Part shown: positions 982 to 42,858 of the stretch, one piece after another | Layout of the letters: every line of letters begins with the position of its first letter | How positions within the stretch are numbered: position 1 is the first letter of the stretch | Origin: an uncultured virus (IMG/VR IMGVR_UViG_3300044950_001783) | Taxonomy: Duplodnaviria; Heunggongvirae; Uroviricota; Caudoviricetes | Strand: one strand, 5' to 3' | Length of the DNA stretch: 64,000 nt | IMG/VR virus record: IMGVR_UViG_3300044950_001783 | Position numbers and translations under genes: made by a program | The notes under the pieces: generated by a model | Databases searched by the model: none | Seen by the model: only the letters and a program-made list of their open reading frames with translations | What the model was told of the DNA's origin: nothing

Positions 982-1225
982 CTGTCGTTTTTGCATGATA
1001 CTGTTTTTACTACGATTTCTGGTGGTGGGGCCGCTACCAGCCCCCAACCGCACCAGTTCAGGGGTTTAGGAGCGCTTCGTATTCCTACGAAGCTGCTCGA
1101 ACGATTGCCTTGCTTCGGAAAAATGTAAAAAAGCCAAGTGGATTTGACTTGGCACCACACCACATTGAGTGCGCCATCAGTTCGATTCCGAAATGCTCAA
1201 TTGAACCCGCGTCCGTAGTTCCCCG

Positions 1226-1924
1226 TTACCGATAGCCCAACCGACCCAGTTCGCGCCGCAAACAACTGTAATACGTTCCTGGGCCACTGTACTTTTGGGC
1301 ACTTTCACAGGCACGCTCGATTGCTGCCTGTTCAGAATAATTCGCTCGAGACATGTCAGGCCGGCCACCAGATGAGCGCAAGTTCCCGAGTTCTCTTTTC
1401 AGACATCCATAGTACGCGCCTGGCCCACTGTACTTTTTGGAGCTGTCGCAAGCGCGTTCGATAGCTTCTTGCTCTGAACTAGTGGCACCTGACATATCTG
1501 GACGACCACCAGTAGACTGAAGATTTCCGAGCTCTCGTTTGAGACAAGCGTAGTACGCTCCCGGACCACTATATTTTCGGGCGCTATCGCAGGCCCGTTC
1601 AATAGCATCCAGTTCTGAGGAACTAGCCGCCGACAAATCTGGGCGACCACCTGTTGAGTTCAAGTTTCCAAGTTCTCGTTTCAAGCAACCATAGTACGCC
1701 CCAGGCCCGCTGTATTTTCTCGCGCTGTCACAGGCTCGTTCTATTGCGTCTTTCTCGGAAGAGTTTGCCCTTGACATATCTGGTCTGCCACCAGATGAAC
1801 GCAAACTACTAAGCTCTCGCTTCAAACAATCGTAGTACGCAGACGGTCCGCTGTATTTGCGAGCGCTATCACAGGCACGCTCAATGCCTTCTTGTTCAAA
1901 CGAGTCTACTTGCGACAAGTCTGG
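1226..1924 (-). repeat. Five tandem 47-aa (141-bp) coding repeats
   Basis: Consensus PD[LM]SxxxSxExxAIERACDSARKYSGPGAYYxCLKRELGNLxSxGGR; the last copy is truncated to 44 aa. Confidence 0.95.
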
Positions 1925-2956
1925 TTTCCCCGATGTTTCACCTGTACCCCAGGATGGTGTCTGCACCGGTTTTGTTGCAGTGGGCGGAGGGGGCGCCGGG
2001 ATAAATTGGGGCTGAATCGATGGTTGTGGTGGACTAGGCTCCTTTGCCTTTGGCCTTTCCGTACTTTGTAACTTACGAAGCAGATCTTCAGTTGGTTTCC
2101 CATCTGCAGTCAGGCCGCTATCCCGCTGAAACGAACTAATGGCCGAACGGGTTTTCCCTCCAATGAATCCATCAGCAGTACCAGCGTCGTAGCCCAGTAC
2201 ATTCAATCGCTGCTGTATGGCCTTAACAGTTGGGTCCGGCGTTGGCTTTACGGCTTGCGGAGTAAGCTTTGGCGTAGCAGGCACCCCAGTAGAAAACCTT
2301 CCACGCCCTTCTGCTTGGAGGTCGGCACGGTAGCGCTCGACTTCGCTTCGCGCGCTTTCCAATGCCCCCTTGCGATAACGGAACTGGCCACAACGATTGT
2401 TGTAATCTGAAACCATCCCATTGAAACGATCGACATGGGAGTCAATGTAGTAATTGACCGCTGCCTTCGCAGATTCGAGTCGTATGTCCTCGGCCAAGCA
2501 ATAGCGTAGCTGAGCGCTGCTCAAAACGGTATTAGTGCCGGCTGGTGGTAATTCTTCAGACAGTCTACTGGGGGCTGCCGGTGTTGCTGCAGGCGGCGAA
2601 TACGAAGGGACCGAAGGGCTTGATGAGTAGGATGGCGACGCCTGATTCTTGTTTCCCGACCCTGCTGCCATCCAGATAACTGCTATTACCGCACCTATTC
2701 CAAGAACCCACTTCCAGCCTGAATTATCCGATGGTTGGGTCGGTGCTTGGTATGGTTGTGCTGTTGATTGTGTCTGGCTACTTTGCTGTGCACTTGTTGC
2801 GCTTTTCTGCTCCTCGTCGGGAACTACCTGCTTTGCAGAAACCGGAGTCGTCGGGGCTGACTTCGGAACGTCAGTGTCTATCTCAACATCTGACACCAGT
2901 GAAGAGAGGCCGGCAAAACCCGCCACATTTTTGTTTTTATCGTCCTCAGATGACAT
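1226..2956 (-). CDS. Single-pass membrane protein with peptidoglycan-binding domain and five Cys-pair repeats
   Basis: TM KWVLGIGAVIAVIWMAA; PG_binding_1-like VKAIQQRLNVLGYDAGTADGFIGGKTRSAISSFQRDSGLTADG; five C-terminal repeats. Paralogue of 6357-7679. Start may be 2965 or 2956. Confidence 0.85.
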   Translation of the reverse strand: MSSEDDKNKNVAGFAGLSSLVSDVEIDTDVPKSAPTTPVSAKQVVPDEEQKSATSAQQSSQTQSTAQPYQAPTQPSDNSGWKWVLGIGAVIAVIWMAAGSGNKNQASPSYSSSPSVPSYSPPAATPAAPSRLSEELPPAGTNTVLSSAQLRYCLAEDIRLESAKAAVNYYIDSHVDRFNGMVSDYNNRCGQFRYRKGALESARSEVERYRADLQAEGRGRFSTGVPATPKLTPQAVKPTPDPTVKAIQQRLNVLGYDAGTADGFIGGKTRSAISSFQRDSGLTADGKPTEDLLRKLQSTERPKAKEPSPPQPSIQPQFIPAPPPPTATKPVQTPSWGTGETSGKPDLSQVDSFEQEGIERACDSARKYSGPSAYYDCLKRELSSLRSSGGRPDMSRANSSEKDAIERACDSARKYSGPGAYYGCLKRELGNLNSTGGRPDLSAASSSELDAIERACDSARKYSGPGAYYACLKRELGNLQSTGGRPDMSGATSSEQEAIERACDSSKKYSGPGAYYGCLKRELGNLRSSGGRPDMSRANYSEQAAIERACESAQKYSGPGTYYSCLRRELGRLGYR

Positions 2957-3031
2957 GCGCCCCACCCACCCATCAATCGATTCAGCGAATCATCGCCAGA
3001 AAACTAACAGCCACAACGGCATTTAGTACAC

Positions 3032-3586
3032 TTAAATTTGCTCGTACAGTTTTTTTGCATCAAAACGATTAATTTTTAACTTCATCCCAATGTGTTCACA
3101 TAGATTTGATACCGCCACATCTTCTGCCAAGAGCGAACGATCGACAGAAACCAAAACCAATGCTTTGGAAATTGCATTGCTGGCGATATTCAATGCCTCA
3201 GGTTTTCCATGACCCATAGTCATTGTGATACCAGGAAGCTGCCATGGAATTATTTCCTGTGTAAGGACATTCGATGCCTGGACATGGGCATTTGCCATGT
3301 CCTCGGCTGCTTGTTCGCAAAGCCGTTGAAACTCGTTTGAGAGCAAATAACTTTGAGATGACGATTTCTTGACTGCAATAATCGCAAGAGCAATCGGCAT
3401 AAACTCACCAAGAATAAAATCTTGCTGAATCAGCCTTGCTATGATTTCATTTTGCCGCGGACTGGGCGGCGAGAGTTTTTTTAATCTTTCAACAGTTGAA
3501 TACAACAAATCATATCCTGACGCCGAAAAGTCCACTCTTCCGGAAAATACGCGAATTACCAAATTAAACAAATTTGCCATGAGCAT
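3032..3586 (-). CDS. Hypothetical protein (AT-rich)
   Basis: Open frame 3032-3754. ATG at 3586 or 3580 avoids overlap with the upstream gene. No recognisable motif. Confidence 0.6.
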   Translation of the reverse strand: MLMANLFNLVIRVFSGRVDFSASGYDLLYSTVERLKKLSPPSPRQNEIIARLIQQDFILGEFMPIALAIIAVKKSSSQSYLLSNEFQRLCEQAAEDMANAHVQASNVLTQEIIPWQLPGITMTMGHGKPEALNIASNAISKALVLVSVDRSLLAEDVAVSNLCEHIGMKLKINRFDAKKLYEQI

Positions 3587-3629
3587 CCCATAATTCGATT
3601 TTTCTACGTGTTCTCTCGAGTGGATCTGT

Positions 3630-4274
3630 CTACTGCGACAAACTGCTTGTAAGCTGACTCTTGACCAGGTCCAACTTTGCTTTGTGGGCGAGAGGGCGCT
3701 TGAATACTTTGTTTTCGATTTGTTCTGAAACCTTGCTGATCGCAATGTAAGCAAAGCTGAGTCCCGAATTGCGCTCAGTCGACTTCATCTCGATAAAGTC
3801 GTACGGAAAGTTTTGACAGAATTTATGAAACCCGCAAAACTGAGGCACTTCTTGTGTGAAGTGGAATCCGTCAGGCGTCAGCCGAGAGCGACGGGGGTGA
3901 TAGAAATCCGTGAAGAAAATAAACCACTCGTTTCCGAAAAACGTCACCGCCTCAAAAACATCGATAGTGTTGATTGCACCAATACGGTGAAAGAGAACAC
4001 GCTCTCCCTTATTCGTTTCCAGCTTCGATAAGTAGGCAAGTTGTCCAATGGGGCCGTTTACAGGGATTGGATTTGTCGCTGAGAACCCAAACGGACCACT
4101 TCCGTTGGGATCACGGTCGTAAGCCGGACTGGACTTGATCATTTCCTTCATTGCCGGATGAAGCATTTCCAACTGAAATTCTTCATCCTCCATAATCCTC
4201 CGGATCTGTCCAAACGCTTCTTGAAGTGCTTTCTGCTCCTTGTTGCCTCCGAAGAGATTTGATAAGAAACCCAT
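3630..4274 (-). CDS. Hypothetical protein with GPFGFSATNPIPVNGPIGQLAYL motif
   Basis: 214-aa ORF with AGGGG RBS, co-oriented in the operon; amphipathic N-terminus MGFLSNLFGG. Confidence 0.8.
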   Translation of the reverse strand: MGFLSNLFGGNKEQKALQEAFGQIRRIMEDEEFQLEMLHPAMKEMIKSSPAYDRDPNGSGPFGFSATNPIPVNGPIGQLAYLSKLETNKGERVLFHRIGAINTIDVFEAVTFFGNEWFIFFTDFYHPRRSRLTPDGFHFTQEVPQFCGFHKFCQNFPYDFIEMKSTERNSGLSFAYIAISKVSEQIENKVFKRPLAHKAKLDLVKSQLTSSLSQ

Positions 4275-4324
4275 AATACCCCCTTGAAAATATTGCTCTG
4301 GCCGGCGGCCGTAATTGATAACGA

Positions 4325-6340
4325 TTAGTCCCTGAAGTATTCGCTCAGCTTGGAAATGCCCTTCTTAAATCCGGATCTCACTACGTGATCCAGCAGATGG
4401 GTATTCCAATGACTCATATAGGATGCCGAGCCGTAAGTTTTCTTGTCGCTCTTGGAGCCAATCACAAACTCACCGTTTGCGCTCCAAACATGTACGTCGC
4501 TCCAAGACAATCGGATCTTCTCATTGGATCCCAATAATTTATGTTTCGTCAAAGTGACAGCTCCGTCTTCGACCAGCATGTCGCCAAAGTGCAGAGACCG
4601 TCCTTCTTCGAGGGCCTCGCTCATTTCGATCATCAACCGGACGCACACAGCCCGCCAGAGAGCCTCGATAAAGCCCGAGAAAGTAGATTCCTTTTTGAGG
4701 CTGATCTCTGTCGAATTATTTCGTGTTGCAAAAGCAATCGTGTAATCGGTGCCAGTCGGAATGCCGTTAACAGAGTGACTGACACTTCCCCATCTCACTG
4801 CAGTGATGGCATCGAGTGGATATCGATTGCCCTTCCAAACCACACCTTCAGGTGAAATACTGAGCGAATCTTTGAAGACAAGGCCAACATCAGCGTTAAA
4901 CGTTATCGCTCGCGCCCACTCGGCCTCTCGTTTTTGGGCTTGTGCCTTCGCCTGCATTCGCTTCGTGTGGATGTCTGAAAGAGTATCGACGTCTTGCTCC
5001 ACTCGCTCGGCCACCTCGGGTAACTCTGCAAATAGCTCCTGAATGAGAATCGTCAGTCGCTTGGATGAGTCCAGCATGTCATGATTGTTGAAGAGATCAA
5101 TAGCAAGACTACGTATGGAATAGGCCAACTCGTTGCTGTGGTCATGATCGATACCACGAGCTTTTGCGCTCAGCTGGATAGGCTGAGCAAACCTGTCCCA
5201 ATTACGTGCAACTTTTTCGATCTTTTCGACCAGGGGCTTGATGGCACTTTCGCCTGATTCGGCAGAACTCCTGGCAGCCTGAACAAGCTTTTTAACATTT
5301 TCTGCTTCCCTCTCGAGGACACCCTGTACCTCTACTGCATAGCTGTCCACCAGGTCGTCAATCAACTCCGGAGCATGGTCTTCACCATTACAGGTCGCAC
5401 CATCGACAGCGAATGTCATCGCATCCAAGAGAGATGCGGGCGGGAGTCGATTCAAAGCATCCTTAATTGCAGTCCTGAAGTATCGCTTACGCTCAAGTAT
5501 TTCATGCTCGACTTGGTCATCCTTGATTTCCGGAAAACCCGATACTGCACGATCTTCGTTTATGTCCCGGACGACTTCATCCAGATCGAGATCATCAACG
5601 AGGTAGGCCATCTCCTGAATGAACTCGGCAACATCATCTGCTTGATCATTCGCATTAACAGCCTCGAACGCAGCTGCCATGAGATTGCAATGAGCGAGAG
5701 TCGGCAATCCGGACTCCACTCGGATTGCCATAGGATCACGCAGCAGACCTTCCAGTAGTTGCGACGCTTTACGGGGGGAAACGCCTGGGAGCCAGGCTAT
5801 TTCCGCAGACAGTCGATTTCGTGGGTTGGTAAGGTCAGTTCGAGCCTTTTGGCAAACCTCATGATCCAGTTCAAGTGACTTTTCTTCTGCTTGTTCAACG
5901 ATCTTCTTCCGATCGTCCCTGGTCGTAACACCCAAAATGGCAAATGGGTTCTTATGCAGGATTGTTGTCCGGATAGAGCGTGGAGTGCGTGTGCTTGTTG
6001 GGGGCGGCGGGGGGCGTGACGCAGCAGGCTTTGGCGGATTGCTAGGCTTCGCTGCTAAAGGAGACTCTGGTTCGCTCCGACCACCAAGCATCGCCATGAG
6101 CTGAGGATCTTTCAAAGCCTCGCTAGCCTGTGCAAGCAAATTCGCCGGTGCAGAGAGCTTCAAATGGTTTTTGATCTCATGTGCATAGCTCAAAAGCTGA
6201 GAGTTGGTGGATAGATGCTCACACAGCACTAGTGACAGGGCTAACGCCTGGTCACCTTTAGGTATGGCTCGACAGGACTTACATGCAGTCAGCGCACCAA
6301 ACTTTTCTTCGCCACACTTAAAACAGATTGCTTTGGTCAT
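4325..6340 (-). CDS. J-domain-like protein lacking HPD, with N-terminal Zn ribbon and helical repeat region
   Basis: CFKC...CKSC at the N-terminus. NPFAILGV...KARTDLTNPRNR resembles the start and end of a J domain but has no HPD. GAGG RBS. Confidence 0.65.
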   Translation of the reverse strand: MTKAICFKCGEEKFGALTACKSCRAIPKGDQALALSLVLCEHLSTNSQLLSYAHEIKNHLKLSAPANLLAQASEALKDPQLMAMLGGRSEPESPLAAKPSNPPKPAASRPPPPPTSTRTPRSIRTTILHKNPFAILGVTTRDDRKKIVEQAEEKSLELDHEVCQKARTDLTNPRNRLSAEIAWLPGVSPRKASQLLEGLLRDPMAIRVESGLPTLAHCNLMAAAFEAVNANDQADDVAEFIQEMAYLVDDLDLDEVVRDINEDRAVSGFPEIKDDQVEHEILERKRYFRTAIKDALNRLPPASLLDAMTFAVDGATCNGEDHAPELIDDLVDSYAVEVQGVLEREAENVKKLVQAARSSAESGESAIKPLVEKIEKVARNWDRFAQPIQLSAKARGIDHDHSNELAYSIRSLAIDLFNNHDMLDSSKRLTILIQELFAELPEVAERVEQDVDTLSDIHTKRMQAKAQAQKREAEWARAITFNADVGLVFKDSLSISPEGVVWKGNRYPLDAITAVRWGSVSHSVNGIPTGTDYTIAFATRNNSTEISLKKESTFSGFIEALWRAVCVRLMIEMSEALEEGRSLHFGDMLVEDGAVTLTKHKLLGSNEKIRLSWSDVHVWSANGEFVIGSKSDKKTYGSASYMSHWNTHLLDHVVRSGFKKGISKLSEYFRD

Positions 6341-6356
6341 TGCGTATTACCAATCC

Positions 6357-6902
6357 TCAATTACGCAGTTGTGCCAATTGGCTCGACAGACACGCGTTGT
6401 AGGCAGCAGGTCCATTCACATACTTGTCGGTAGAGCAGGCAGCCTCGATAGATTGCCGAGCTGACGCAGATAGCCCTGATAAATTCGGTCTGGAGCCTTG
6501 CTGCTCTAGCGCGTGCAACTGCGATGAAAGGCAGTTGTTATAGGCAGAGGGGCCGTTGACGTACTTGTCAGTGGAACAGGCTGCTTCAATAGACTCACGT
6601 TCGGACGACGACAATCGAGAAAGATCAGGTCTTCTGTTTTGGGGTGTGAGCGCTGAAGCTTGTTGTGTCAGGCAAGCGTTATATGCAGCCGGGCCATTGA
6701 CGTATTTGTCCGTCGAGCAAGCGGCTTCGATCGACTCCCGCTCAGCTCCGGAGAGCCGGCTCAGATCAGGTCTTCTCACACCATTTCGCAGAGCGTCCAT
6801 CTGTCCTGCGATGCAGTTTTTATAGGCCGCAGGGCCATTGACGTACTTGTCGGTAGAACAGGCTGCCTCTATAGACTCCCGTTCAGGCCCTGAAAGTTGG
6901 GG
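6357..6902 (-). repeat. Four tandem ~47-aa coding repeats
   Basis: Core SIEAACSTDKYVNGP[AS]AYxxC present four times. Confidence 0.95.
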
Positions 6903-7679
6903 ATTCGCTATTGAAGAGACCTTTTGTTCCGGAACAACCGCAGGCGGTTCCGGATTGAGGGTGATTGTCGGCGAAGGTGATACAGACGCTGTGGCTGGCT
7001 TTCCTGCGAAATAGCCTCGTCCTTCAGCAGCGAGCTCGAATCGAAATGGTTCAATGTCGGAGCGGGCACTTTCTAATGCGCCAGACCGATATTTGAATGC
7101 ACCACAACGACTGTTGTAATCAGCAACCATTGCGTTGAATTGGTCAACATCAGAGTCCGCGTAGCTACTGAGACTGCCCTTGGCGGCCTCCATCCGAATA
7201 TCTTCAGCTAGACAATATCGGATCTGAGCGGCGCCAAGTACATGATCCCTTCCGGCTGGCGGCATTTCTTCTGATGGCCGTCTTGGCGCCTGGGGCTCAC
7301 TCACCGAAGATTGGGATGTCGGTGCCGTAGCATAATTACTCGGGGTATAACTCGACGGTGATGATGTGTTTTTGTTGCCAGAGGCCCACACAAGCCAGAT
7401 GACGCCAATCACCGCACCTATACCCAACAACCATTTGCCTCCAGAAGATCCGCCGCTCGGCTGAACAGGTGCTTGGTATGCTTGTGGCGCAGGCTTAGCG
7501 ACATGATCCTCTTGGGACGACGTGGCGCGAGGCTGCGGATTATTTGTTGCGGGACCAGGTTTGTTCTGTGTTTTCTGCTCAGGAGGCTCTACAGTCATAT
7601 CGACGTCAGAAACCATCGAGGAAAGCCCCGCGAATCCTTGACCTGCACCTTCTTTTTTTTGTTCTTCCCCTGATGCCAC
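6357..7679 (-). CDS. Single-pass membrane protein with four Cys-pair repeats
   Basis: TM KWLLGIGAVIGVIWLVW; shares the RYCLAEDIR...DYNSRCG domain with 1226-2956; four C-terminal repeats. Confidence 0.85.
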   Translation of the reverse strand: MASGEEQKKEGAGQGFAGLSSMVSDVDMTVEPPEQKTQNKPGPATNNPQPRATSSQEDHVAKPAPQAYQAPVQPSGGSSGGKWLLGIGAVIGVIWLVWASGNKNTSSPSSYTPSNYATAPTSQSSVSEPQAPRRPSEEMPPAGRDHVLGAAQIRYCLAEDIRMEAAKGSLSSYADSDVDQFNAMVADYNSRCGAFKYRSGALESARSDIEPFRFELAAEGRGYFAGKPATASVSPSPTITLNPEPPAVVPEQKVSSIANPQLSGPERESIEAACSTDKYVNGPAAYKNCIAGQMDALRNGVRRPDLSRLSGAERESIEAACSTDKYVNGPAAYNACLTQQASALTPQNRRPDLSRLSSSERESIEAACSTDKYVNGPSAYNNCLSSQLHALEQQGSRPNLSGLSASARQSIEAACSTDKYVNGPAAYNACLSSQLAQLRN

Positions 7680-7689
7680 GGACTATCCC

Positions 7690-9129
7690 CTAAATAAACC
7701 CTATTCGCCGTTGCGATCCACCTTCGCGCTCTCTTGCTGGAGCAGAATCCATCGCGTCCAACAAGCTGTGATGGTCCAATTTGTCTTTTCCGGCGCGTGC
7801 GGCCAGTCTCGCTCCTTCGCGAATAACGAAGGTAACGTCGGACAAGGGGCGGCCAGCCAATTCCTTTGCTAAGGGTTTGGGATCTACGTCATCCTCTTTT
7901 GGTAACGTAGACAAGAGCGTTTCAAGCAAAGACAAGACTTCGCCTTCGCTTGCAAAGTCGACGTTGATGACATGATCGAATCGTCCGCGCCGCAAAATTG
8001 CGGGATCGATCATGTCGACTCGATTCGTCATGGCGATAATCAGCACGTCGTTCTTTGTTGCCTCTGGAATACGCCGCAAGAACTCAGCGACTTCTTCGAC
8101 GCGGTGGTGTCCAGATCCCATTTCCCGATCAGCAAGGAAGGCTTCCATCTCATCAATAACGAGCACGGATGGCGAGTTTTGCATCGCCTTGTCGAATACT
8201 TCAGCGACCTTCTTGCTCGTCTCGTGAATGTACGGGCTGGCGACACTGGAGGCCTCAATCTGGAAACTTGGCCATCCCAGAAAATCGACCAGGCGCTCAA
8301 CTGCAAAAGTCTTTCCACACCCTGGGGGGCCATGCAGAACTACCGCAGCGGGGAAATCTATACCTAATGCCTTATAGCGCTCACGGTTCTGAACGATATC
8401 GACAATGTGTTCGTTGAAAAAATCAGCAAGCTCAGGACGCCCAGCAAGTTCAAATACCCTGGGGGCTGATCCCTGGTCATGCGTTTCTGTCTTGGCTTCA
8501 GTTCTCTCTGTTTGTTTGGTCTCAGTGCGGTCGGGAGGTACCCGATGCCTATCGGCCGGAATTATTTCGGTAACTTCGATACCTGCAGCTTGGACTACAT
8601 CTTTGAGGTGGTTAGCCCCAAGCCAACTCAAGGTTTGACGCAACCGCCTGAATGATTTGGCTGAAACACTTGCACCACCAGTTAGCCAATATCCGAGAAC
8701 CACATCATCTTCAGTTCTTGAACTGATGCTGTAGGTTGGCAGGATGCGACTGATCTTTTCGACGTACAAGGCATCCTGAAGAGGAGTCTCCGCATCGATA
8801 TCACGCGTAGCCTTCAGCGCAAGCGCGAATGAAAGCGCTTCCGCCTTGGTGCTTGGTGAGTCACCATCAGAAACGGGGCAAAGGACTTGGCTTGATCCGC
8901 ACGAGATTTCCCAAAGTACCGTCTCGCCAAAGTTGAATGAGCCAAATAGTCCTGCGTCGATCAGTCCCGCTTCAATCCATCGCTGAGCAAGCTCATTCTG
9001 GACAATAAGGGCACGGCCACCGCCTGGTGTTTCCAGAATTTGCCAATTCGGGCCCTCGAATAGTGCGACACGCGTCTTCGCGCCGTCAGGCAACTTGAAG
9101 CCAATTGGAAGCCACGCATCAAATGCCAT
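7690..9129 (-). CDS. Classical-clade AAA+ ATPase with unrecognised N-terminal domain
   Basis: Walker A GPPGCGKT, Walker B VLVIDE, SRH TNRVDMIDPAILRRGRFD, C-terminal RRIGF; no protease domain. Confidence 0.9.
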   Translation of the reverse strand: MAFDAWLPIGFKLPDGAKTRVALFEGPNWQILETPGGGRALIVQNELAQRWIEAGLIDAGLFGSFNFGETVLWEISCGSSQVLCPVSDGDSPSTKAEALSFALALKATRDIDAETPLQDALYVEKISRILPTYSISSRTEDDVVLGYWLTGGASVSAKSFRRLRQTLSWLGANHLKDVVQAAGIEVTEIIPADRHRVPPDRTETKQTERTEAKTETHDQGSAPRVFELAGRPELADFFNEHIVDIVQNRERYKALGIDFPAAVVLHGPPGCGKTFAVERLVDFLGWPSFQIEASSVASPYIHETSKKVAEVFDKAMQNSPSVLVIDEMEAFLADREMGSGHHRVEEVAEFLRRIPEATKNDVLIIAMTNRVDMIDPAILRRGRFDHVINVDFASEGEVLSLLETLLSTLPKEDDVDPKPLAKELAGRPLSDVTFVIREGARLAARAGKDKLDHHSLLDAMDSAPAREREGGSQRRIGFI

Positions 9130-9132
9130 AGA

Positions 9133-11625
9133 TCAACTCCGCACGATATTCGTGCTGGCCATCATTTCATCATCGCCAGCCGAGCCGATACGCACCGAGT
9201 CAAGATGCGCCACCACTGCCCTTAGTTTGTCGATATCGTTTGCCTTCAGTGCCTCGGTTCCCGCTGCAACCAACTGTGCATGCTCGTGCACATCCGGAAA
9301 AAGATATGAGTCTTGGGCCAGCCACTTGAAGCGGTCGATCACGAACCAGTCCTGCCGCCACAGAATCAAGAAGTTCTTCCCTCGCAATTCGTCCAGGTGG
9401 CTTTCAAAATCACCACTGTTGTTGTCGATCGAACGCTGTGCTGTCTTGGCTAGATTGTCGAATGCATTCGCTTCAGTTGGGCGGGCATGTTCCCGAACGT
9501 GCTTATCGAAAAATTCCACTGCCTTATCGAACTCAAGCTGGCGAATTTCCTTCAGATGCTCCTTGCGAGCAAGAGCCAGTAGTCGCTTGGCCTCCTGGAC
9601 ATTGTCCATTGCCTGTTTGGCCGCTTCGGGGTCAGTCTCACCCGACTTCATGGATTCCGCTTGCTCTAATTTCTCGCGAGCCTGATCCAGTTTCGGATCA
9701 TCGATCTTCGATGCCATTTCTTCTAAACGCGCCATCGCGTGCTCGGATTGCTCTTCAACCAGTTTTGAAGCTTTGGTGTAATCGATTTGGCCGTCCTGGC
9801 GGGAGTAGAAGTTGCGCCCACTGTGAAACAAGCCGCCAATTGAAGGTACCGAAACCTCCATCTTGATGTTCCCGGAATCCAGGATTTCGTATTCACAGAT
9901 GAGCTCGGCGCCAGCAGCTATAACTCCATCGTCAAAGTCTGAACCTTTGATCTCAAACATCCCGATGAAACGGTTATCGGTGACTGGATCCGAGATTTCA
10001 CCTTCCCACAGTTTGAACTTGATAGATCCAGCGCTACCGGCCTTGAGGGATTCCTCGGATTTGAAGGTCTTCTTGCCCTTCTTAGGCAACTGATCGCCTT
10101 CTCGGACAAGATGATCAAGGACGATCCGTCCGCCCAGTTTGTCCCGAGCTTCCACGCCGATGGAGTGAGAAGCGGGAATTGCATCGATGCTGGCAGCCGT
10201 CCTGGAAATTACGATCTTGTCTTCACGAAGGGCAACAGGCCCACCCTTGGAATCAAAGACGAAGACCTTAAACATGTTCTCCCCAGGCTTCGCTAGACTA
10301 AGCTCGACCGACGCGCCATCCTTAAGCGCCAAGCGGCCTGACGACCATCCGGTGTCCAGACTGTCAATCTGGAATTCCGCGCCATCAGCTGCCTTCCCAC
10401 CGAGCTTGGCCATCACCTTGGCCTTTGAGTCTGGGGTCCGAGAAATGTAGTTAAAGGAAAGGTCTAGCGCGCCTCCCGCACTAATTGCCCCTCTAGCATT
10501 TTTGCGGCCACGAGTTTGCGACGACCAGTCGATTGATTCGGCAAAGACAGCCGCACCTTCAGCCACTGCCGTCATGGGGTTAACGTCTGTCGAAGAAGCG
10601 ATGCCAAGTTCAAAAGCAACTTTGTCTCTGAGCGGCTTGTACTGTGTTGGACCTCCTACGAACACCACACGCTCAACGTCGTGCGGGCTATATCCAGCTT
10701 TCTCTAGGGTTTCGCGAGCGGACTGAATGGATTCTTCGAGCTTGCCAGAGATCAGATCATCAAGTAGATCTCGGCCAAACGGGATATCGACGTAGATTTC
10801 CCCACCGGACTCATCTGTAACGCCGAGATCAGACTCAGTCAGGCTGATTACGGACTCTTCCTTCGCAGATAGCTCGATTTTTGCCTTTTCAGCAGCCCAA
10901 AGGCACATTCTGATAAGCGACTTGTACTTGGCATTGGCACTGAAATCGTCAGGGAGCTCAAAGTTGGAAAGCAGCCACGGCTTCACGACGTTATCAAGGA
11001 TGGCGCGATCAAAATCGGTACCGCCACACATGGCAACACCGCCGTGAGCCAATAAACTGACGCGACCGCTAATGCTTTCTGCAAGAGCAATATCCAATGT
11101 GCCGCCACCAAGGTCGAACACGAGGAAGACACCATCGCCTTTTCGCTGTCGCATAACACTCATGACAGCCGCGACCGGCTCCTGCATCAAGGCAACACTC
11201 CCCAGGCCGGCCATTTCAGCCGCAGCCAATGTTGCATCCTTTTGCATCTGATTGAAGGCAGCAGGAACGGTAATGACGGTTCCAGTCTCTCCGCTATTTC
11301 GGATTTCCTCCGGAAGGTAGCCAAAGCATAACTTCAGAATTTCTGCGGAGCACTCTTCTGGCGTCATCGTAATGTTTACCGCCCCCAACTTCACCGGGGT
11401 GCTCGTCCCCATCATGCGTTTGAACTTGGTCGCGGCATTATCTGGATTCTTTGCGGCACTATCGTATGCACGCTTACCAAGGTACTTGTTGCCTCTTCGA
11501 TCAATGAAGATGGCTGACGGCGTTACGTCGTTTTGATCGGGGCTCTTGTACAAGCGCACAGATTCCCCGTCATAGGAACAAATGGCACTGTTCGTCGTGC
11601 CGAGGTCAATCCCGATGTATTTCAT
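9133..11625 (-). CDS. Hsp70/DnaK-family chaperone, atypical 830-aa form
   Basis: IGIDLGTTNS, TVPAAF, EPVAA, FDLGGGTLD, GGTDFD, FVGGPT, VAEGAA. Confidence 0.95.
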   Translation of the reverse strand: MKYIGIDLGTTNSAICSYDGESVRLYKSPDQNDVTPSAIFIDRRGNKYLGKRAYDSAAKNPDNAATKFKRMMGTSTPVKLGAVNITMTPEECSAEILKLCFGYLPEEIRNSGETGTVITVPAAFNQMQKDATLAAAEMAGLGSVALMQEPVAAVMSVMRQRKGDGVFLVFDLGGGTLDIALAESISGRVSLLAHGGVAMCGGTDFDRAILDNVVKPWLLSNFELPDDFSANAKYKSLIRMCLWAAEKAKIELSAKEESVISLTESDLGVTDESGGEIYVDIPFGRDLLDDLISGKLEESIQSARETLEKAGYSPHDVERVVFVGGPTQYKPLRDKVAFELGIASSTDVNPMTAVAEGAAVFAESIDWSSQTRGRKNARGAISAGGALDLSFNYISRTPDSKAKVMAKLGGKAADGAEFQIDSLDTGWSSGRLALKDGASVELSLAKPGENMFKVFVFDSKGGPVALREDKIVISRTAASIDAIPASHSIGVEARDKLGGRIVLDHLVREGDQLPKKGKKTFKSEESLKAGSAGSIKFKLWEGEISDPVTDNRFIGMFEIKGSDFDDGVIAAGAELICEYEILDSGNIKMEVSVPSIGGLFHSGRNFYSRQDGQIDYTKASKLVEEQSEHAMARLEEMASKIDDPKLDQAREKLEQAESMKSGETDPEAAKQAMDNVQEAKRLLALARKEHLKEIRQLEFDKAVEFFDKHVREHARPTEANAFDNLAKTAQRSIDNNSGDFESHLDELRGKNFLILWRQDWFVIDRFKWLAQDSYLFPDVHEHAQLVAAGTEALKANDIDKLRAVVAHLDSVRIGSAGDDEMMASTNIVRS

Positions 11626-11996
11626 GACTCTGCCTTCCTGAGCATCACTGTGCCTTGTTTTTTTAGCCCTTCGGGGCCCATGATGATGGGTTCCACCATC
11701 TGATCAACCAAGAGTTGATCATCAGGATCAAAGTCGCCAATGTTTAAAGCCGATGCTGCCATGCCGGGATCGAAAGGCTGGCCTTCGACGTTAACCAACT
11801 TCAGGCCGCTCGCATCAAGGCTATCCTCGACCTTCTTTTGGAAATAGCGAAGCTGGTTGACGTATCTGGCACCTTCTCCTGCATCCAGCTTGTTAACCAC
11901 CCGCGCAAAGAGCCTAGAAAAACGCCAGCTTTCAACAGCGACATCGATCAGTGATCGTTCCAGCTGCTCATTATTCTGATTGTTATCAGTTGTCAT
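11622..11996 (-). CDS. GrpE-like nucleotide exchange factor
   Basis: Helical N-terminus, then LDASGLKLVNVEGQPFDPG...VDQMVEP...KQGTVML, resembling the GrpE C-terminal beta domain. ATGA overlap with Hsp70. ATG at 11996 follows a G-rich RBS. Confidence 0.6.
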   Translation of the reverse strand: MTTDNNQNNEQLERSLIDVAVESWRFSRLFARVVNKLDAGEGARYVNQLRYFQKKVEDSLDASGLKLVNVEGQPFDPGMAASALNIGDFDPDDQLLVDQMVEPIIMGPEGLKKQGTVMLRKAES

Positions 11997-12458
11997 TACC
12001 CCCCCGCAGTCTGCCATTTTCGACAAAGTGACCTACTCACAACATAGGTATACCAAGACCTTGCGTCATTTCGATCGTCCGAGATGACGATAATCCCATG
12101 GTGGCTCCGAGCTCCCATATCGACGTTCAAGAACCTATTACCTTTGGCCGAGACTCGCCACTTGCGGTGGAACCAGCGTGTTCGACGAGATGCTTGATTT
12201 CTTTGGCGCGCCTCGCGGCGCTCGGGACCGTCGTAGTCGCTCATCTTCTCGGTACAGACGCACCCAACCTCGAACTGAACTACCAGTTTCAGTGTACTCC
12301 ATGATGTGGACGTATCGAACTCACTCCTTTCCTTACATCTAGCAGGTCGCATAGCCAGACTTGTTCACGGCATCACCGTCGGCGCGGATGTCGATGACAT
12401 CGACACAGTTCCACCCCTTGTGGGGGATGCCCTGCTGGTCCCAACGGTTATCGCTCAT
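11996..12458 (-). pseudogene. Degraded Cys-rich (probable Zn-binding) hypothetical gene
   Basis: From ATG 12458: MSDNRWDQQGIPHKGWNCVDVIDIRADGDAVNKSGYATC*M*GKE*VRYVHIME, then a frameshift into FEVGCVCTEKMSDYDGPERRE...WRVSAKGNRFLNVD. Confidence 0.7.
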
Positions 12459-12533: not shown

Positions 12534-12581
12534 ACATATACTGTGCGCAAGAGTGCCAACCAGCCATTATTGGCTCGCAAG

Positions 12582-13484
12582 ATGTCAAACGAAGAAATTT
12601 CAGAACTGACTCAGCCCCAGCGCGACCGACTCGCCTTCATCGAGTTGCGTCTGCGCTTCATCGGGGAAATTCGCCGCCAGGATTTGGTGGCACGATTTGG
12701 TATCCAGGCGGCGGCTGCGACAAGGGATATCGCCCAGTACAAAGAGATTGCTCAGCGCAATCTCGACTACGACCCCAAGGGCAAGGTGTACGTGCGCGGC
12801 GAGTGGTTTCGCCCGGTGTTCGAGTATCCGGTAGAGCGCGTGCTCGCTTGGCTGTCGCAGGGGTTTGGGGATGGTGAGCCACTACGGTTCAAATCTCTTG
12901 TTTCATGTGAAGGGCCTGCGTTATTAAACAAGCCGGATCTCGAAACGCTGTCTGTGCTGACGCGCGCCATTCATCGAAAGGGTGTTGTCGAGATTTCATA
13001 TCGAGCGTTGTCCAGCGGACTGACCACGCGGGAGATCGTCCCGTTTGCACTGGCTGACAACGGGTTGCGCTGGCATGTACGTGCCTATGATCGGCGCAGT
13101 GGCGAATTTCGGGATTTTGTCCTGACACGTATTGCCGATGCCCGACTGATATCTGGCCGCACTGAAGAACACGAGATGCCAGACCAGGACATCCAGTGGA
13201 CCCGAATTGTCGAGCTTGAACTGGTGCCGCACCCGGCGAACGTCCAGCATCCCGACGCTATTGAAGCCGACTATGGCATGGATGGCGGGGCTCTTCGCAT
13301 TCGTGTCCGTGCCGCTGTGGCAGGCTACCTGCTCCGCCGATGGAACGTGGACTGCACCGAGAATCACGGCCTCAAAGGTGCCGAGTACCACCTGTGGCTT
13401 CGCAATCACCTATCGCTGGTTGATGTAGCCAACCTCAGTATCGCGCCTGGGTACGTAGCGCCGACACGATCAACGGACAATTGA
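12582..13484 (+). CDS. WYL-domain transcriptional regulator, CapW/BrxR type (wHTH-WYL-WCX)
   Basis: wHTH RRQDLVARFGIQAAAATRDIAQY; WYL GLRWHVRAYDRRSGEFRDFVLTRI; WCX YLLRRWNVDC. Confidence 0.9.
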   Translation: MSNEEISELTQPQRDRLAFIELRLRFIGEIRRQDLVARFGIQAAAATRDIAQYKEIAQRNLDYDPKGKVYVRGEWFRPVFEYPVERVLAWLSQGFGDGEPLRFKSLVSCEGPALLNKPDLETLSVLTRAIHRKGVVEISYRALSSGLTTREIVPFALADNGLRWHVRAYDRRSGEFRDFVLTRIADARLISGRTEEHEMPDQDIQWTRIVELELVPHPANVQHPDAIEADYGMDGGALRIRVRAAVAGYLLRRWNVDCTENHGLKGAEYHLWLRNHLSLVDVANLSIAPGYVAPTRSTDN

Positions 13485-13495
13485 GGACGACGGCC

Positions 13496-13861
13496 ATGCC
13501 ATGCGCAGCAACTCACCGAATCATCAACTTCGCAGCGACAGCGAGTTACCTTGCCTCTCGGCCGCCGGAGCAGCAACAGGGCATCACGCATCCAATTGTC
13601 GGTGGAACCACTTCAGCACTGCTGGCGAGCTTGCCTGATGCCATTGAACCGGCCATCCATCCGCATCACCGTCAGTTTTTTCATAGCTTCGCGTTCGCCG
13701 GTATGGTCGGCTACGGCCTGCATCGAGCCTACCGATGGAATCCAGAAACAGACGGGCAAAAGCTGTTGCGCGTAGGCGCTCTGGTTGTCGGCTCCGCGTA
13801 CTTGCTTCACCTCGCGGCTGACTTGTTTACCGCACGCTCCATTCCCGTTCTCGGCAAGTAA
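13496..13861 (+). CDS. Small membrane metal-dependent hydrolase (YdjM-like)
   Basis: TH...SLPDAIEP...HHRQFFHS...YLLHLAAD motifs, hydrophobic helices, GAGG RBS. Confidence 0.75.
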   Translation: MPCAATHRIINFAATASYLASRPPEQQQGITHPIVGGTTSALLASLPDAIEPAIHPHHRQFFHSFAFAGMVGYGLHRAYRWNPETDGQKLLRVGALVVGSAYLLHLAADLFTARSIPVLGK

Positions 13862-14115: not shown

Positions 14116-17100
14116 ATGCTGAAGCTAGAGCAGATCCAGAAAAACGCAGCCATCTCCGGCATTGAGCCCGGACAAGTGGTGCGTGTCGTGACCACGGAAC
14201 CGGCTGGCGACAGCGCTCTCACCGTCTATTACAAAACATCGGATGGCAAACTTCTGGAGCGGATGCTGTTCCGCACAGACGAGGCAAATCTGTCGTTGGC
14301 CGAGGCCGGTCGGCCGTGGGCGTTCGATGCGCCAGGCGAAGAATTCAAGCTTGCCACCGAAGCCTACCGGATCAATCTGGCGCACCTGTTCGATCCGATG
14401 ATGGCCGTCCATACGTCCAACGTCGAACCACTGCCGCACCAGATTACGGCAGTCTACGAATCTATGCTGCCGCGCCAGCCGCTGCGCTATGTACTGGCGG
14501 ATGACCCTGGTGCAGGCAAGACCATCATGGCCGGGCTGTTCATCCGTGAACTGCTGATGCGTGCCGACGCCAAGCGTGTGCTGATCGTCGCGCCCGGCAG
14601 CCTGGTCGAACAGTGGCAAGACGAAATGTTCGAGAAGTTCGGTCTGTCCTTCTTGCTGTTTTCCCGCGAGCAAGTTGAACAATCACGAAGTGGCAATCCC
14701 TTCGACGACATCGACCTGATGGTTGCCAGGGTAGACCAGCTATCCCGTAGCGAAGACCTCCAGGAAAAGCTGCGCCTTTCGCATTGGGATCTGATCGTCG
14801 TCGACGAAGCGCACAAGCTCTCGGCCAGCTACTTTGGCAACAAGGTCAACAAGACCAAACGCTTCCAACTCGGCGAATTGCTGGGTTCTATTACCCGCCA
14901 CTTTCTGCTGATGACCGCCACGCCTCACAACGGCAAGGAAGAGGACTTCCAGTTATTTATGTCGTTGCTGGACTCCGACCGCTTCTACGGCAAGTTCCGC
15001 GATGGCGCGCACAAGGTCGATGTCACCGATCTGATGCGCCGAATGGTCAAGGAAGACCTGCTCAAGTTTGATGGCTCCCCCCTGTTCCCCGAGCGCCGTG
15101 CCCGCACTGCCAACTACAAACTCTCCGACAAGGAGGCCGCGCTTTACGCCGCTGTCACCGACTACGTGAAGGAGGAGATGAACCGTGCGGATCAATTGCA
15201 AGATGGCGCACGTAAGGGCACGGTAGGCTTCGCGCTGACCTCGCTGCAGCGCCGCCTAGCATCGAGCCCGGAAGCTATCTACCAGTCGCTCAAACGCCGT
15301 AGCAACAAGCTCAAGCGTCGTGTCGAGGAAGAAAAACTTCGTCAGCGTGGCCAGACGCTGGCAGAGACCATAAGCCTGAACAATATCCCCGAGGACATTT
15401 GGGAATCTGCTGATGCACTCTCACCGGACGACTACGAGAACTTCGAAGAAGCCGTCGTCGATCAAGCCACGGCAGCACAGACCATCCAGGAGCTTGAGGC
15501 CGAAATCATCATCCTCGAAGGTCTGGAGGAACAGGCCCGCCAGGTCGTCCACTCTGGCCAGGATCGCAAGTGGGATGAGCTATCCAAACTACTGCAGAAC
15601 ACGCCCGAGATGCACGATGCAGACGGTCGTCAACGTAAGCTCATCATCTTCACCGAGCACCGCGACACGCTGAACTACCTCGCGGTCAAGATTCGCGGCC
15701 TGATCGGCAACGAAGAGTCTGTCGTGATGATCCACGGCGGCGTCAAACGCGAAGATCGCCGCAAGGTGCAAGAGCTATTCCGCAACGATCCGGACACCCG
15801 CGTGTTGCTGGCCACCGATGCGGCGGGCGAAGGTGTGAACCTGCAAAACGCCAACCTGATGGTCAACTACGATCTGCCGTGGAACCCCAACCGGCTGGAG
15901 CAGCGCTTCGGTCGTATCCACCGCATCGGCCAGACTGAGGTCTGTCACCTGTGGAACATGGTCGCCGCCGAAACCCGCGAGGGCGACGTATTCCAGCGCC
16001 TGTTTGAAAAACTGGAGGTCGAGCGCAAAGCGCTGGGCGGTCGCGTGTTCGACATCCTCGGCGAGGTGTTTGAAGAAAAAAGCCTCAAAGACCTGCTGAT
16101 CGAAGCCATCCGCTACGGTGATGACCCCGAGATACGCGCCCGACTGCACCGCAAGGTCGAAGGCGCCCTCGATACTCAGCACCTCGAAACCATCATCAAG
16201 CGCAACGCACTATGTGAAGAGGTGATGGACGAGCGACGCCTGTTTGCCGTCAAGGAAGAGATGGAAAAGGCCGAAGCCCGCAAGCTGCAACCCTATTTCA
16301 TCCGCTCCTTTTTCAACCAGGCATTCCAGCAACTTGGCGGCGAGCTGCGCCCCCGCGAGCAAGGCCGTTACGAGATCACCCACGTTCCGGCCAATATCCG
16401 CGAACGGGATCGGCAAATCACAGGCCGCGACCGTCGCAATGCCGACCCGGTGCTGCGCCGCTATGAGCGAGTCTGCTTCGAGAAGCAGTTCGTCCGTCTC
16501 ACCGAGCGGATTGGCGCACCGATGGCCAGCCTGATGCATCCAGGCCATCCGCTCATGCAGTCCGTGACCGATCTCGTGCTGGAACAGCATCGCAACAAGC
16601 TCAAGCAGGGAACTGTGCTGGTCGATCCGAGCGACATGGGCATCACACCCAAGGTGATGTTCATCATCGACCACTCGGTGAGAGAAGGCGCCGACCCCGC
16701 CCACGTCGTGTCTCGCCGTATGCAATTTGTCGAGATCGACCCACAAGGCAGCGCAATCAACGCCGGCTGGGCACCCCACCTCGACCTGGAGCCGATCAGC
16801 AAGGCGGATATGGGCTTGATCGAGGATGTACTGAGCGCGTCCTGGCTCAGTGGTCAGCATGGCCAGATCCTTGAACAAGTTGCTCTCTCTCATGCCGCCA
16901 CGCACCTTGTGCCCGAGCACTTTGACGAAGTACGCACCCGGCGTGAAAAGAACGTCGACAAGACCCTGACTGCTGTACATGAGCGTCTCGTCAAAGAAAT
17001 CAACTACTGGTCGGATCGCTACATCAAGTTTCAGGACGACATTGCCGCCGGCAAAGACGTGCGTCTGACGCTCGAAAACGTCCGCCGCACGATTGACGAC

Positions 17101-17667
17101 CTGACCACACGACGGGAGTCGCGTGAGAAAGAATTGCTGGGGATGCGCCACGTCATCTCGGCAACACCGGTTGTAGCGGGGGGCGCATTGGTGATTCCCG
17201 CCGGACTGCTGATGCAGCGCAAGGCGCAGCCAGGATGGACGGCTGACGCCGATGCGCGTGCGAGAGTCGAGTGGGTGGCAATGAAGGCCGTGATGGACGC
17301 TGAACGCGCACTCGGTCACGAAGTCATCGATGTTTCGGCGCAGAAATGCGGCTGGGACTTGACCAGCCTGCCGAAAAGTACAGATGGCAAGATTCCGCCC
17401 TCGCGCCACATCGAGGTCAAGGGCCGAGCCAAGGGCAACACCACGGTCACGGTCACCCGCAACGAAATCCTCTACGGGCTGAACCAGCAGGACAAATTCA
17501 TCCTGGCCATCGTCCTCGTCGATGGTGAACAACACGAAGGGCCGTTCTACGTGACCAAGCCCTTCACGCAAGAACCGGATTGGGCGGTCACCAGCATTAA
17601 CATGGATTTGCAGGAGCTATTGAAACGCGCAAATCCTCCCGAAAGGAATAAAAGTCATGCGGATTGA
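14116..17667 (+). CDS. SNF2-family helicase with C-terminal DUF3883 nuclease-like domain
   Basis: [49 protein letters not shown]-terminal GWDL...IEVKG...TRNE. Confidence 0.92.
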
Positions 17668-19929: not shown

Positions 19930-19931
19930 TC

Positions 19932-22820
<2,889 letters not shown>

Positions 22821-22834
22821 TTGAGGAGCAGCAG

Positions 22835-27102: not shown

Positions 27103-27105
27103 AAA

Positions 27106-27597: not shown

Positions 27598-27614
27598 GCG
27601 AGGAATCTGGAGAT

Positions 27615-42476: not shown

Positions 42477-42761
42477 CTACAGCCGCGTGAGCGTGGCGCG
42501 GGCCTCGGTGCCATCGCCCGTCACGGTGATTTCCCGCACGCGATAGCTGCGCCCGGAGATCCACAGGGTGTCGCCGGAAGCCAGCGCCGGCAGTCGGCTC
42601 AAGGGATAGCGGATGCTGTAGTTGCGTGAGACACCCAGGCCATCCAACACGTCCTCATCGGGAGCACGGAAGTCGACCATGACTTCCGTACTTCCAAATG
42701 CAGCGCGCGTCAGCATCCCGGACCGGGCCGCTGCGTCATACATGGATTCGATGGCTATCAT
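42477..42761 (-). CDS. Head-tail joining protein
   Basis: 94 aa; ISGRSYRVREI...GDGTEARATL. Confidence 0.7.
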   Translation of the reverse strand: MIAIESMYDAAARSGMLTRAAFGSTEVMVDFRAPDEDVLDGLGVSRNYSIRYPLSRLPALASGDTLWISGRSYRVREITVTGDGTEARATLTRL

Positions 42762-42858
42762 GCGGGCTGCCAGAAAGAATTGGCGCAGAGATTGGATTGA
42801 TTTTGCAATTTGTATCCGTTGTTAATCAATAAGTTAAAAATAACTATTGGAGTGAAAC

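Follow-up and report, generated by a model that had tools for sequence, protein, structure and literature searches.

Three types of prokaryotic Hsp70, namely DnaK, HscA and HscC, are recognised in a section of a 2021 review, where the last two are expected to work without GrpE (PMC8215388). Bacterial Hsp70s beyond these three are described as largely unexplored ‘dark matter’ in part of a 2026 review (PMC13580251). Non-housekeeping Hsp70s appear in conflict systems, such as CnuD of CoCoNuT in a section of one report (PMC11090510) and the GTPase/tubulin/Hsp70 systems with GrpE and DnaJ fusions in a section of another (PMC7159879). Here we analysed an Hsp70 gene cluster in a 64,000-nt stretch of DNA from an uncultured virus (IMG/VR record IMGVR_UViG_3300044950_001783), the whole of which is called the window below. 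The region belongs to a large, widespread family of horizontally mobile and apparently undescribed cassettes, in which genes for a GrpE-like factor, a non-canonical Hsp70 and an AAA+ ATPase are followed by those for membrane proteins with a shared N-terminal tag and for a 671-aa scaffold protein. A first-pass annotation, made from the letters of the window, had read the cluster as a candidate new trans-envelope system. Its observation of the gene cluster is confirmed, and its interpretation is partly supported.

Coordinates are positions within the window, and the cassette genes are all on the minus strand. Eight co-oriented open reading frames (ORFs) run from 12026 down to 1226, and the first five are, as originally described, overlapping or no more than 16 bp apart. 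There is a 4-bp overlap between the GrpE-like and Hsp70 genes, and the spacings calculated from the coordinates are 3 bp from Hsp70 to AAA+, 10 bp from AAA+ to the membrane protein and 16 bp from the membrane protein to the scaffold. This five-gene core is ~7.7 kb in size (4325–11996). The scaffold gene is followed by a 50-bp gap, then by two ORFs of 214 and 240 aa that overlap each other, and after another 66 bp by the gene for a second membrane protein of 579 aa. A terminator-like hairpin with a T-run, found by a consensus scan directly past this last gene (1133–1153, minus strand), is likely the operon end. A 21-nt string, TTGGTATACCTATGTTGTGAG, is found 5′ of the cassette both in the window (11996–12100) and at another locus (L001), at different distances to the start codon, and may be an operator or promoter element.

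Conservation of the cassette was examined by scanning one genome per species. A relative of the Hsp70 was found in 283 species genomes, and 80 loci were kept for comparison. Linkage was counted only at loci with a contig long enough to include the gene in question, and the gene had to be in the same order and on the same strand as in the window. The GrpE-like protein is encoded directly upstream of the Hsp70 at 76/76 such loci, and the AAA+ gene is kept at 66/68. A relative of the main membrane protein follows the AAA+ gene at 59/63 loci, and the scaffold is kept at 53/54. The arrangement goes far beyond what chance would give, as dozens of unrelated genomes share this gene order. Co-occurrence of the homologues across genomes, on which the reading of the cluster as one system turned, is thus seen as a conserved order in the 80-locus comparison.

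The host sources are beta-, gamma- and alpha-proteobacteria. For a few cassette contigs, the bin label is Planctomycetes, Acidobacteria, Armatimonadota, Elusimicrobia or Geobacteraceae, and mis-binning is possible for some of the non-proteobacterial hosts because some of these are short contigs of metagenome-assembled genomes. When the 1102 ORFs of the 80 loci were clustered, a longer form of the cassette was found. Its additional products are the 214-aa protein, two secreted proteins (one of them ~170 aa long), a second tagged paralogue of the membrane protein, an RDD-family membrane protein and a further, small membrane protein. The window cassette is a shortened version of this longer form. 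Relatives of the scaffold were found in 8 viral contigs among 2.9 million, and with so few of them a generally phage-borne system was rejected. The nearest IMG/VR entry, of 48 kb and classed as viral, includes the cassette.

The membrane proteins are related to each other within the window. Envelope protein 1 (440 aa, 6357–7679) is composed of the tag GFAGLSSMVSD (7605–7637, read from the translation), a low-complexity linker, one span, a two-Cys domain and four Cys repeats. Envelope protein 2 (579 aa, 1226–2965), a paralogue that is 44% identical to protein 1, has the tag GFAGLSSLVSD (2888–2920, also from the translation), a span, a two-Cys domain, a PG_binding_1 domain (residues 245–299, E = 6.1e-16) and five Cys repeats. 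The repeats in both translations are ~47 aa long with two Cys each, and Tandem Repeats Finder reports a 141-bp period with 3.2 copies at 1350–1794. A second tagged paralogue is found downstream also in the longer cassette form of other loci.

An alignment of 28 members has a common plan, in which a near-invariant (K)GFAGLSSLVSD is followed by a low-complexity linker, one hydrophobic span, a two-Cys domain of ~85 aa and a variable C-terminus. Its invariant Cys residues are C156 and C192. The C-terminal part differs by locus, as it can be absent or made of PG_binding_1, 47-aa two-Cys repeats, other Cys-rich repeats or SLT. When 13 other tagged proteins were tested for modules, PG_binding_1 was found in 6, SLT in one and two TonB_C domains in one. 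According to the alignment, the conserved part of the envelope proteins is the tag, one span and the two-Cys domain, not the Cys repeats. The repeats had been proposed to sense or block something at the cell wall; they are indeed present in both window proteins, but turn out to be an optional and variable add-on across the alignment. On the other hand, the proposed tie of the Hsp70 set to envelope proteins holds, given the linkage at 59/63 loci and the PG_binding_1, SLT and TonB_C modules.

Among the ORFs of the 80 loci, the tag is confined to these proteins. A strict tag pattern matches 70 of the 1102 ORFs, all of which encode membrane proteins of the cassette with the match near the N-terminus. 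The carriers are 66 of the 73 main-family proteins and four non-homologous membrane proteins from the same operons, which are one protein with two TonB_C domains (E = 1.3e-25), one of 197 aa and a 596-aa protein present in two copies. The seven main-family members missing the strict pattern comprise five with near-variant tags and two that look like mis-called starts. The distance from tag to span has a median of 57 aa (range 43–88, n = 57), and the tagged proteins have no signal peptide at the N-terminus. Another N-terminal motif, MAYEDPNAP, is shared by the RDD-family membrane protein and a ~95-aa membrane protein of the longer form (clusters 9 and 13; loci L015, L017, L018, L020, L032, L037, L054 and L055), and may be a second tag class.

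The Hsp70 of the cassette (830 aa, 9133–11625) consists of a nucleotide-binding domain (residues 1–363), an insert (~364–479), a candidate β subdomain of the substrate-binding domain (SBD-β, ~480–590) and a long helical C-terminal part. The nucleotide-binding domain, of the actin fold, matches PF00012 (E = 1.4e-52, residues 4–363), and its motifs GIDLGTTNS, DLGGGTLD and VGGPT show little or no variation across 26 sequences. Against the DnaK equivalog model TIGR02350, the protein scores 196.9 bits with a cut-off of 822.55 and is aligned at residues 2–362 only. Likewise, its profile aligns to DnaK chains of the PDB over residues 2–363 only. A canonical DnaK above the cut-off is also present in 5/5 host genomes checked, and the cassette Hsp70 is an extra protein rather than the housekeeping DnaK. 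Residues 480–587 align collinearly with the SBD-β of DnaK/HscA in hhalign (P = 0.0024), so that a divergent substrate-binding domain is possible after the ~115-aa insert. The ESM Atlas look-up of the C-terminal part returned only unnamed or Hsp70-labelled clusters and no structures. The best 120 Hsp70 clusters in a large protein collection are 87–98% identical, and their sources are named as Nitrosococcus, Ferrovum, Polynucleobacter, Pelagibaca and others of the alpha-, beta- and gamma-proteobacteria.

The gene upstream of the Hsp70 encodes a mini-GrpE-like nucleotide exchange factor of 124 aa (11622–11996), with a start at ATG 11996. Upstream of this ATG, the reading frame stays open as far as a TTG at 12026 (11622–12026), but the ATG is likely the true start because the homologues are 123–125 aa long. 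No Pfam or NCBIfam family matches the protein at E ≤ 0.01, and no GrpE was found with its profile among PDB sequences. Its AlphaFold2 model, with a predicted local distance difference test score (pLDDT) of 89.7, has a helical hairpin made of a long helix pair and a C-terminal beta domain. When this model was compared with the PDB by Foldseek, ranks 1–10 were all GrpE or GrpEL1 chains (E from 5.7e-4 to 4.5e-2, probability 0.80–1.00). By its predicted fold, the small protein is a miniature GrpE that is undetectable by sequence.

The AAA+ ATPase (479 aa, 7690–9129) has a conserved N-domain (residues 1 to ~195), a variable linker and a single AAA module of the Cdc48/p97/VAT type (PF00004, E = 3.9e-31). 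Its best PDB relatives are NVL, VAT, p97 and Cdc48, with E from 1e-60 to 1e-50 over residues ~230–450, and the N-domain (1–195) has no sequence match in the PDB. GPPGCGKT, VIDEME, the SPYIHE loop and RRGRFD vary little or not at all in 21 sequences, and Walker A/B, the pore-loop aromatic residue and the arginine fingers are conserved. The score with TIGR01243 (Cdc48/p97/VAT) is 146.9 bits against a cut-off of 802.65, and there is one AAA module, not the two in tandem that accompany a double-psi-barrel N-domain in that family. Cdc48-type motors are best known from archaea and eukaryotes. The identities first assigned to the GrpE-like, Hsp70 and AAA+ genes are accordingly borne out by the GrpE-fold matches of the model, PF00012 and PF00004.

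The PADLOC match of the ATPase to IetA (E = 3.9e-26) covers the generic AAA module. Assignment as the IetAS/IteA ATPase was rejected with 86.2 bits against the NCBI IteA cut-off of 510 and no protease gene in the operon to match the partner protease IetS. The C-terminus of the ATPase ends in a conserved RRIGF[I/V]. This ending recalls the C-terminal motifs by which proteasomal ATPases dock partner rings, and no partner is evident here.

The scaffold protein (671 aa, 4325–6340) consists of a Zn-ribbon with helices (residues 1–87), a disordered segment (88–117), a helical part up to ~480 and tandem PH-like domains (481–660). It matches no Pfam or NCBIfam family. Its AlphaFold2 model has a pLDDT of 90.4, and the PH/PTB matches of the model have Foldseek probabilities of 0.85–0.97 with E > 1e-3 and VIA Z of 7.6–8.9. 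The Zn-ribbon was rightly noticed in the window protein, and it is optional in the family, as it is missing in about half of 22 aligned relatives. In 4 of the 22, a helical segment and a C-terminal membrane anchor replace the PH domains. The family is large, with 2509, 1885 and 1001 clusters (50% identity) at E ≤ 1e-3, 1e-10 and 1e-30, respectively, among 1.84 billion representatives.

A stretch of the scaffold, NPFAILGV...LDHEV...LTNPRNRL, is J-like by eye, and four short helices are modelled in this region of residues ~130–182 (132–136, 144–154, 160–171 and 173–182). Alignment by hhalign to six J-domains from the dnaJ/hscB genes of the hosts gave a P of 0.033, with 0.3 for the reversed control. 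Only chance-level rows were returned from PDB sequences for the scaffold profile and for the 77-aa J-like region. Fold searches with the whole model found no J-domain protein among lists filled by the helical and PH parts, and the J-like region was barely covered because these matches filled the lists. Residues ~130–182 may or may not be a J-like module, one without the His-Pro-Asp (HPD) motif.

The cassette matches no system catalogued in PADLOC, in agreement with the first impression of its novelty. With the defence models of PADLOC-DB v2.0.0 (2023), seven of the eight operon proteins matched 0 families, the eighth had only generic AAA matches, and no system was reported. A full-text literature search, with subscription journals and supplementary files outside its scope, found no description of this gene set. 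No such gene set appears in the consulted part of a preprint on protease effectors either (PMC12642450).

We propose that the envelope proteins are dedicated clients or working parts of the machine encoded in the cassette. The best explanation of the locus, to which we give a probability of roughly 0.55, is that a private chaperone/unfoldase acts on the tagged envelope proteins from the cytoplasmic side. HscA with IscU is a specialised Hsp70 that reads one specific client motif, and AAA+ unfoldases start on unstructured ends; binding and pulling of the tag are therefore proposed. A restricted client range of HscA is also stated in a section of the 2021 review (PMC8215388). In the proposed course, the envelope proteins would present the fixed tag and the low-complexity linker of ~57 residues to the cytoplasm, where the machine would recognise the tag. 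ATP would then be used to pull on, unfold or extract the tagged proteins, and this pulling could switch or power their periplasmic parts at the cell wall. We infer that the tag is a handle for the machine, that the action is extraction, force transmission or biogenesis with assisted insertion, and that the host benefits from it.

Several observations weigh against this explanation. The orientation of the tagged proteins, single-pass and N-in/C-out with periplasmic C-terminal parts, is predicted from the types of their domains. A main-family membrane protein is missing at 4/63 loci with room, at least two of which (L012 and L067) carry a different tagged protein instead. The C-terminal 467 residues of the Hsp70 match no solved structure by sequence, as residues 364–830 gave one chance-level row from PDB sequences, and the hhalign probability of the alignment to SBD-β is 12%. 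No member of the scaffold family (0/22) matches the J-domain PF00226 even at E ≤ 10, and no J-protein was found in the PDB profile search of the J-like region. The HPD position, which in J-domains lies between helices II and III, reads D-H-[D/E] in the family and is not invariant, so HPD is missing, and the label ‘J-like’ first put on the 671-aa protein has no sequence support. Finally, family searches found no protease, nuclease, toxin or other output domain in the cassette.

A stronger form of the mechanism can be conceived as an ATP-driven trans-envelope device, whose motor would grip the tag and pull single-pass proteins that hold peptidoglycan or the outer membrane through PG-binding, SLT or TonB-C modules, and which mobile elements would spread as a barrier to phage or DNA entry. 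We regard this form as unlikely; if true, ATP spent in the cytoplasm would do mechanical work at the cell wall or remodel it rapidly. The trans-envelope module suggested in the first-pass annotation stands in that a set of Hsp70, GrpE-like factor and AAA+ ATPase of its own is linked to single-span proteins with wall modules, but its defence role is no more than possible, and the role given to the Cys repeats is not supported.

What the cassette does for its host can be explained in three ways. In anti-phage or anti-plasmid defence, an invader would be detected or stopped at the cell wall by the periplasmic domains, and the Hsp70 and AAA+ ATPase would execute the response through envelope change or killing of the infected cell. 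The window cassette adjoins Hma, Septu and Thoeris genes and a lambda-like prophage, and its nearest record is classed as viral. Some immediate neighbours elsewhere belong to established or candidate defence systems, namely Hhe/PDC-S37 twice, PDC-S21, PDC-M27C, PDC-M26A, a GajB-like helicase, an LmuB-like protein, SoFic and a type I methylase. Moreover, the periplasmic modules are swapped between loci, as is often the case in receptor parts. However, the only PADLOC match in the cassette is the generic AAA+/IetA one, with 86.2 bits against 510 for IteA, and no toxin or nuclease domain was found in the cassette proteins. Most flank ORFs are mobile-element or unassigned genes, and the PADLOC matches of 16/124 flank ORFs are a count with no background control. 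The ATPases are 70–98% identical across bacterial classes, which is unusual for defence proteins, and only 8 of 2.9 million viral contigs have a relative of the scaffold. Defence is somewhat unlikely with these findings, and the defence function originally assigned loses support from the missing effector domain, the uncontrolled flank count and the unusually conserved proteins.

The conservation of the ATPases, with all parts being of the chaperone type, speaks for the cassette as a mobile module for envelope proteostasis or stress tolerance, an extra chaperone set that would keep particular envelope proteins working under heat, metal or cell-wall stress. It is cargo on integrative and conjugative elements (ICEs), on transposons and in islands, where TerC, a CusS/R-like two-component pair and efflux-type permeases are among the metabolic and stress genes nearby, and HscC with DjlB/DjlC is proposed to chaperone membrane proteins in a section of the 2021 review (PMC8215388). 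A general stress chaperone, however, would not need a strict 11-residue tag on co-encoded proteins, and no genes for small heat-shock proteins or proteases lie alongside. No conserved heat-shock or stress promoter element was seen in 14 of 74 upstream regions inspected by eye; nor did any shared promoter or operator stand out in the same inspection, which used no motif finder. This explanation is quite improbable. Thirdly, the cassette might serve the mobile element itself: the ATPases would place or remove tagged proteins that bind peptidoglycan or act as lytic transglycosylases, and so remodel the cell wall or exclude entry in prophage life or during conjugation. This service is suggested by 7 loci at which the cassette directly follows SNF2-helicase/DUF6094-methylase genes of ICEs with the DUF3577 and DUF3275 backbone, by TraG-type coupling protein, DUF4400, RepC and DUF932 neighbours elsewhere, and by the one tagged protein with SLT. 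Yet other copies of the cassette lie beside Tn3 transposases or ordinary chromosomal genes, or on short contigs that have no transfer genes, and no type IV secretion gene is consistently adjacent, making such a service very improbable. As a benefit, defence ranks above stress tolerance, which ranks above the element's own life, and all three are compatible with the tag-and-pull mechanism.

The cassette is a concrete case among the unexplored bacterial Hsp70s, offering a complete parts list and an 11-residue candidate client handle. If the tag-and-pull mechanism is true, bacteria would have a novel means of linking ATP in the cytoplasm to what happens at the cell wall. If the cassette protects from phages, a chaperone would be the engine of a defence system.

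Two further ORFs lie between the scaffold and the second envelope protein, both of which were first listed as hypothetical members. The 214-aa accessory protein (3630–4274) is conserved at 27/51 loci with room and can be kept as a member. It has no family match, its N-terminus MGFLSNLFGG resembles the tag, and the ESM Atlas look-up returned only unnamed or Hsp70-labelled clusters and no structures. The 240-aa ORF (3032–3754), which overlaps the 214-aa gene and also has no family match, is doubtful. It is not counted as a member because it has no relative at any of the 80 loci (0/80) and lies in a stretch of 43% GC. This GC dip at 3000–4000, compared with ~52% for the operon, contains a promoter-like site (3353–3382) and a terminator-like site (3450–3474) on the plus strand, and may be a small foreign insert or the site of an antisense transcript.

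The WYL regulator (12543–13484, plus strand; PF13280, E = 2e-12; PADLOC WYL, E = 9.3e-21) is divergent from the cassette and next to it, as first noted. It is not linked to the cassette, however, since a WYL gene is near it at 5/56 loci with room, and on this count its role as the cassette regulator was rejected. In the window, it points the same way as the YdjM-like and the Hma, Septu and Thoeris genes, and at L001 and L005 the WYL gene is co-oriented with an Hhe-like gene; therefore, it belongs to the neighbouring defence genes. A gene for a YdjM-family membrane protein (126 aa, 13481–13861) lies between the WYL gene and HmaA, shares 4 bp with the end of the WYL gene and may be co-regulated with it.

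The three defence systems reported beyond the WYL gene are all present as HmaA/B/C, PtuA/PtuB and ThsA with two ThsB. Septu PtuA/PtuB (17657–19929) is nested between HmaA (14116–17667) and HmaB/HmaC (19875–25663), all co-oriented and tightly packed, so that one defence system lies inside the operon of another. Thoeris follows at 25660–28208, with ThsA of the SIR2-STALD type and two different ThsB TIR proteins. Directly after it, a phage lysozyme gene (28225–28686) is on the opposite strand, where the defence island abuts the lysis end of a lambda-like prophage that extends from ~28.2 kb to the window end. Among the minus-strand tail and capsid genes of this prophage, two plus-strand genes at 41862–43161, PRiA4_ORF3-like (E = 2.1e-48) and Cdd1 ‘pathogenicity locus’ (E = 3.9e-26), look like moron-type inserts.

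Neighbours at the other loci were surveyed as 124 flank ORFs, of which 35 are representatives of clusters and 89 lie no more than three ORFs away at loci L001–L053. Many of these are mobile-element genes, including tyrosine integrases, one cluster of which occurs at 10 loci. The ICE backbone set of DUF3577, DUF3275, DUF6094 methylase and SNF2 helicase lies directly before the cassette at 7 loci, and further flank genes are TraG/TrwB, DUF4400, RepC, DUF932, Tn3 transposases and a resolvase. Other flank ORFs are ordinary metabolic genes at island borders. With integrases, ICE genes and Tn3 among the flanks, the setting is mobile or variable DNA. The 16 PADLOC matches among the flanks, a descriptive count at E ≤ 1e-10, include strong ones to Hhe/PDC-S37 twice, PDC-S21, PDC-M27C, PDC-M26A, SoFic and type I methylase, and generic ones to helicase and HTH. 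At L023, a DUF2357 gene is a downstream neighbour.

How the cassette stands among known systems can now be considered. It is like DnaK-DnaJ-GrpE with ClpB in that an Hsp70 with the signature motifs, a factor with the predicted GrpE fold and an AAA+ threading motor, whose pore loop has an aromatic residue, are co-encoded. Unlike DnaK, however, the cassette Hsp70 is far below the DnaK cut-off, and has 830 aa, an insert of ~115 aa and a long tail. Unlike bacterial GrpE and DnaJ, the exchange factor is a 124-aa mini-GrpE undetectable by sequence, and the cassette has no J-domain with HPD. Unlike ClpB, the AAA+ ATPase is of the single-ring Cdc48/p97 type, and the whole set, which is mobile, is linked to membrane proteins with a tag.

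Two further machines are comparable by analogy. The presequence translocase-associated motor (PAM; mtHsp70, Tim44, Pam16/Pam18 and Mge1) is a membrane-held Hsp70 with a GrpE-type factor and the HPD-less J-like Pam16, and pulls an unfolded N-terminal segment. The cassette may resemble it as an Hsp70 with a GrpE-type factor at the membrane that would pull a membrane-crossing protein. The homology is limited to Hsp70 and GrpE, and the cassette differs in having no translocon and an added AAA+ ATPase. Extraction by Cdc48/p97 and Msp1 may be likened to the proposed action in that the ATPase is of the classical clade and the clients have a long unstructured cytoplasmic end before a single span. The cassette ATPase differs from Cdc48/p97 by having one AAA module instead of two and an unrelated N-domain, and no ubiquitin-like tagging or protease partner was seen.

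Among bacterial systems, HscC-DjlB/DjlC of E. coli is alike as a specialised, non-housekeeping Hsp70 that is proposed to serve membrane proteins and has co-factors tethered to the membrane, according to the HscC section of the 2021 review (PMC8215388). This likeness extends to the 4/22 aligned scaffold relatives that have a C-terminal membrane anchor replacing the PH domains. In that section, however, HscC has 550–580 aa and GrpE is not expected (PMC8215388), whereas the cassette Hsp70 has 830 aa and the GrpE-like gene is present at 76/76 loci. In addition, DjlB/DjlC are described there as true J-proteins (PMC8215388), whereas PF00226 matches 0/22 members of the scaffold family. HscC is not known to have an AAA+ partner or a tagged client set.

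CoCoNuT and the GTPase/tubulin/Hsp70 systems share with the cassette a non-housekeeping Hsp70 in defence-type neighbourhoods, one theme of them with GrpE, in the sections that describe them (PMC11090510, PMC7159879). As described there, these systems are built on McrBC-type GTPases/HEPN or on GAP1-N2 GTPases with FNIII/DnaJ, none of which is in this operon. In particular, neither of the CoCoNuT type III hallmarks, an McrB-like GTPase and a DUF2357 McrC homologue, was found in the window operon by family searches. Conversely, a Cdc48-type AAA+ core and N-terminally tagged envelope proteins, which characterise the cassette, are not mentioned for those systems in the same sections (PMC11090510, PMC7159879). 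The cassette is, apparently, an undescribed version of the Hsp70/AAA+ theme, in which the tag shared by its envelope proteins is the new part.

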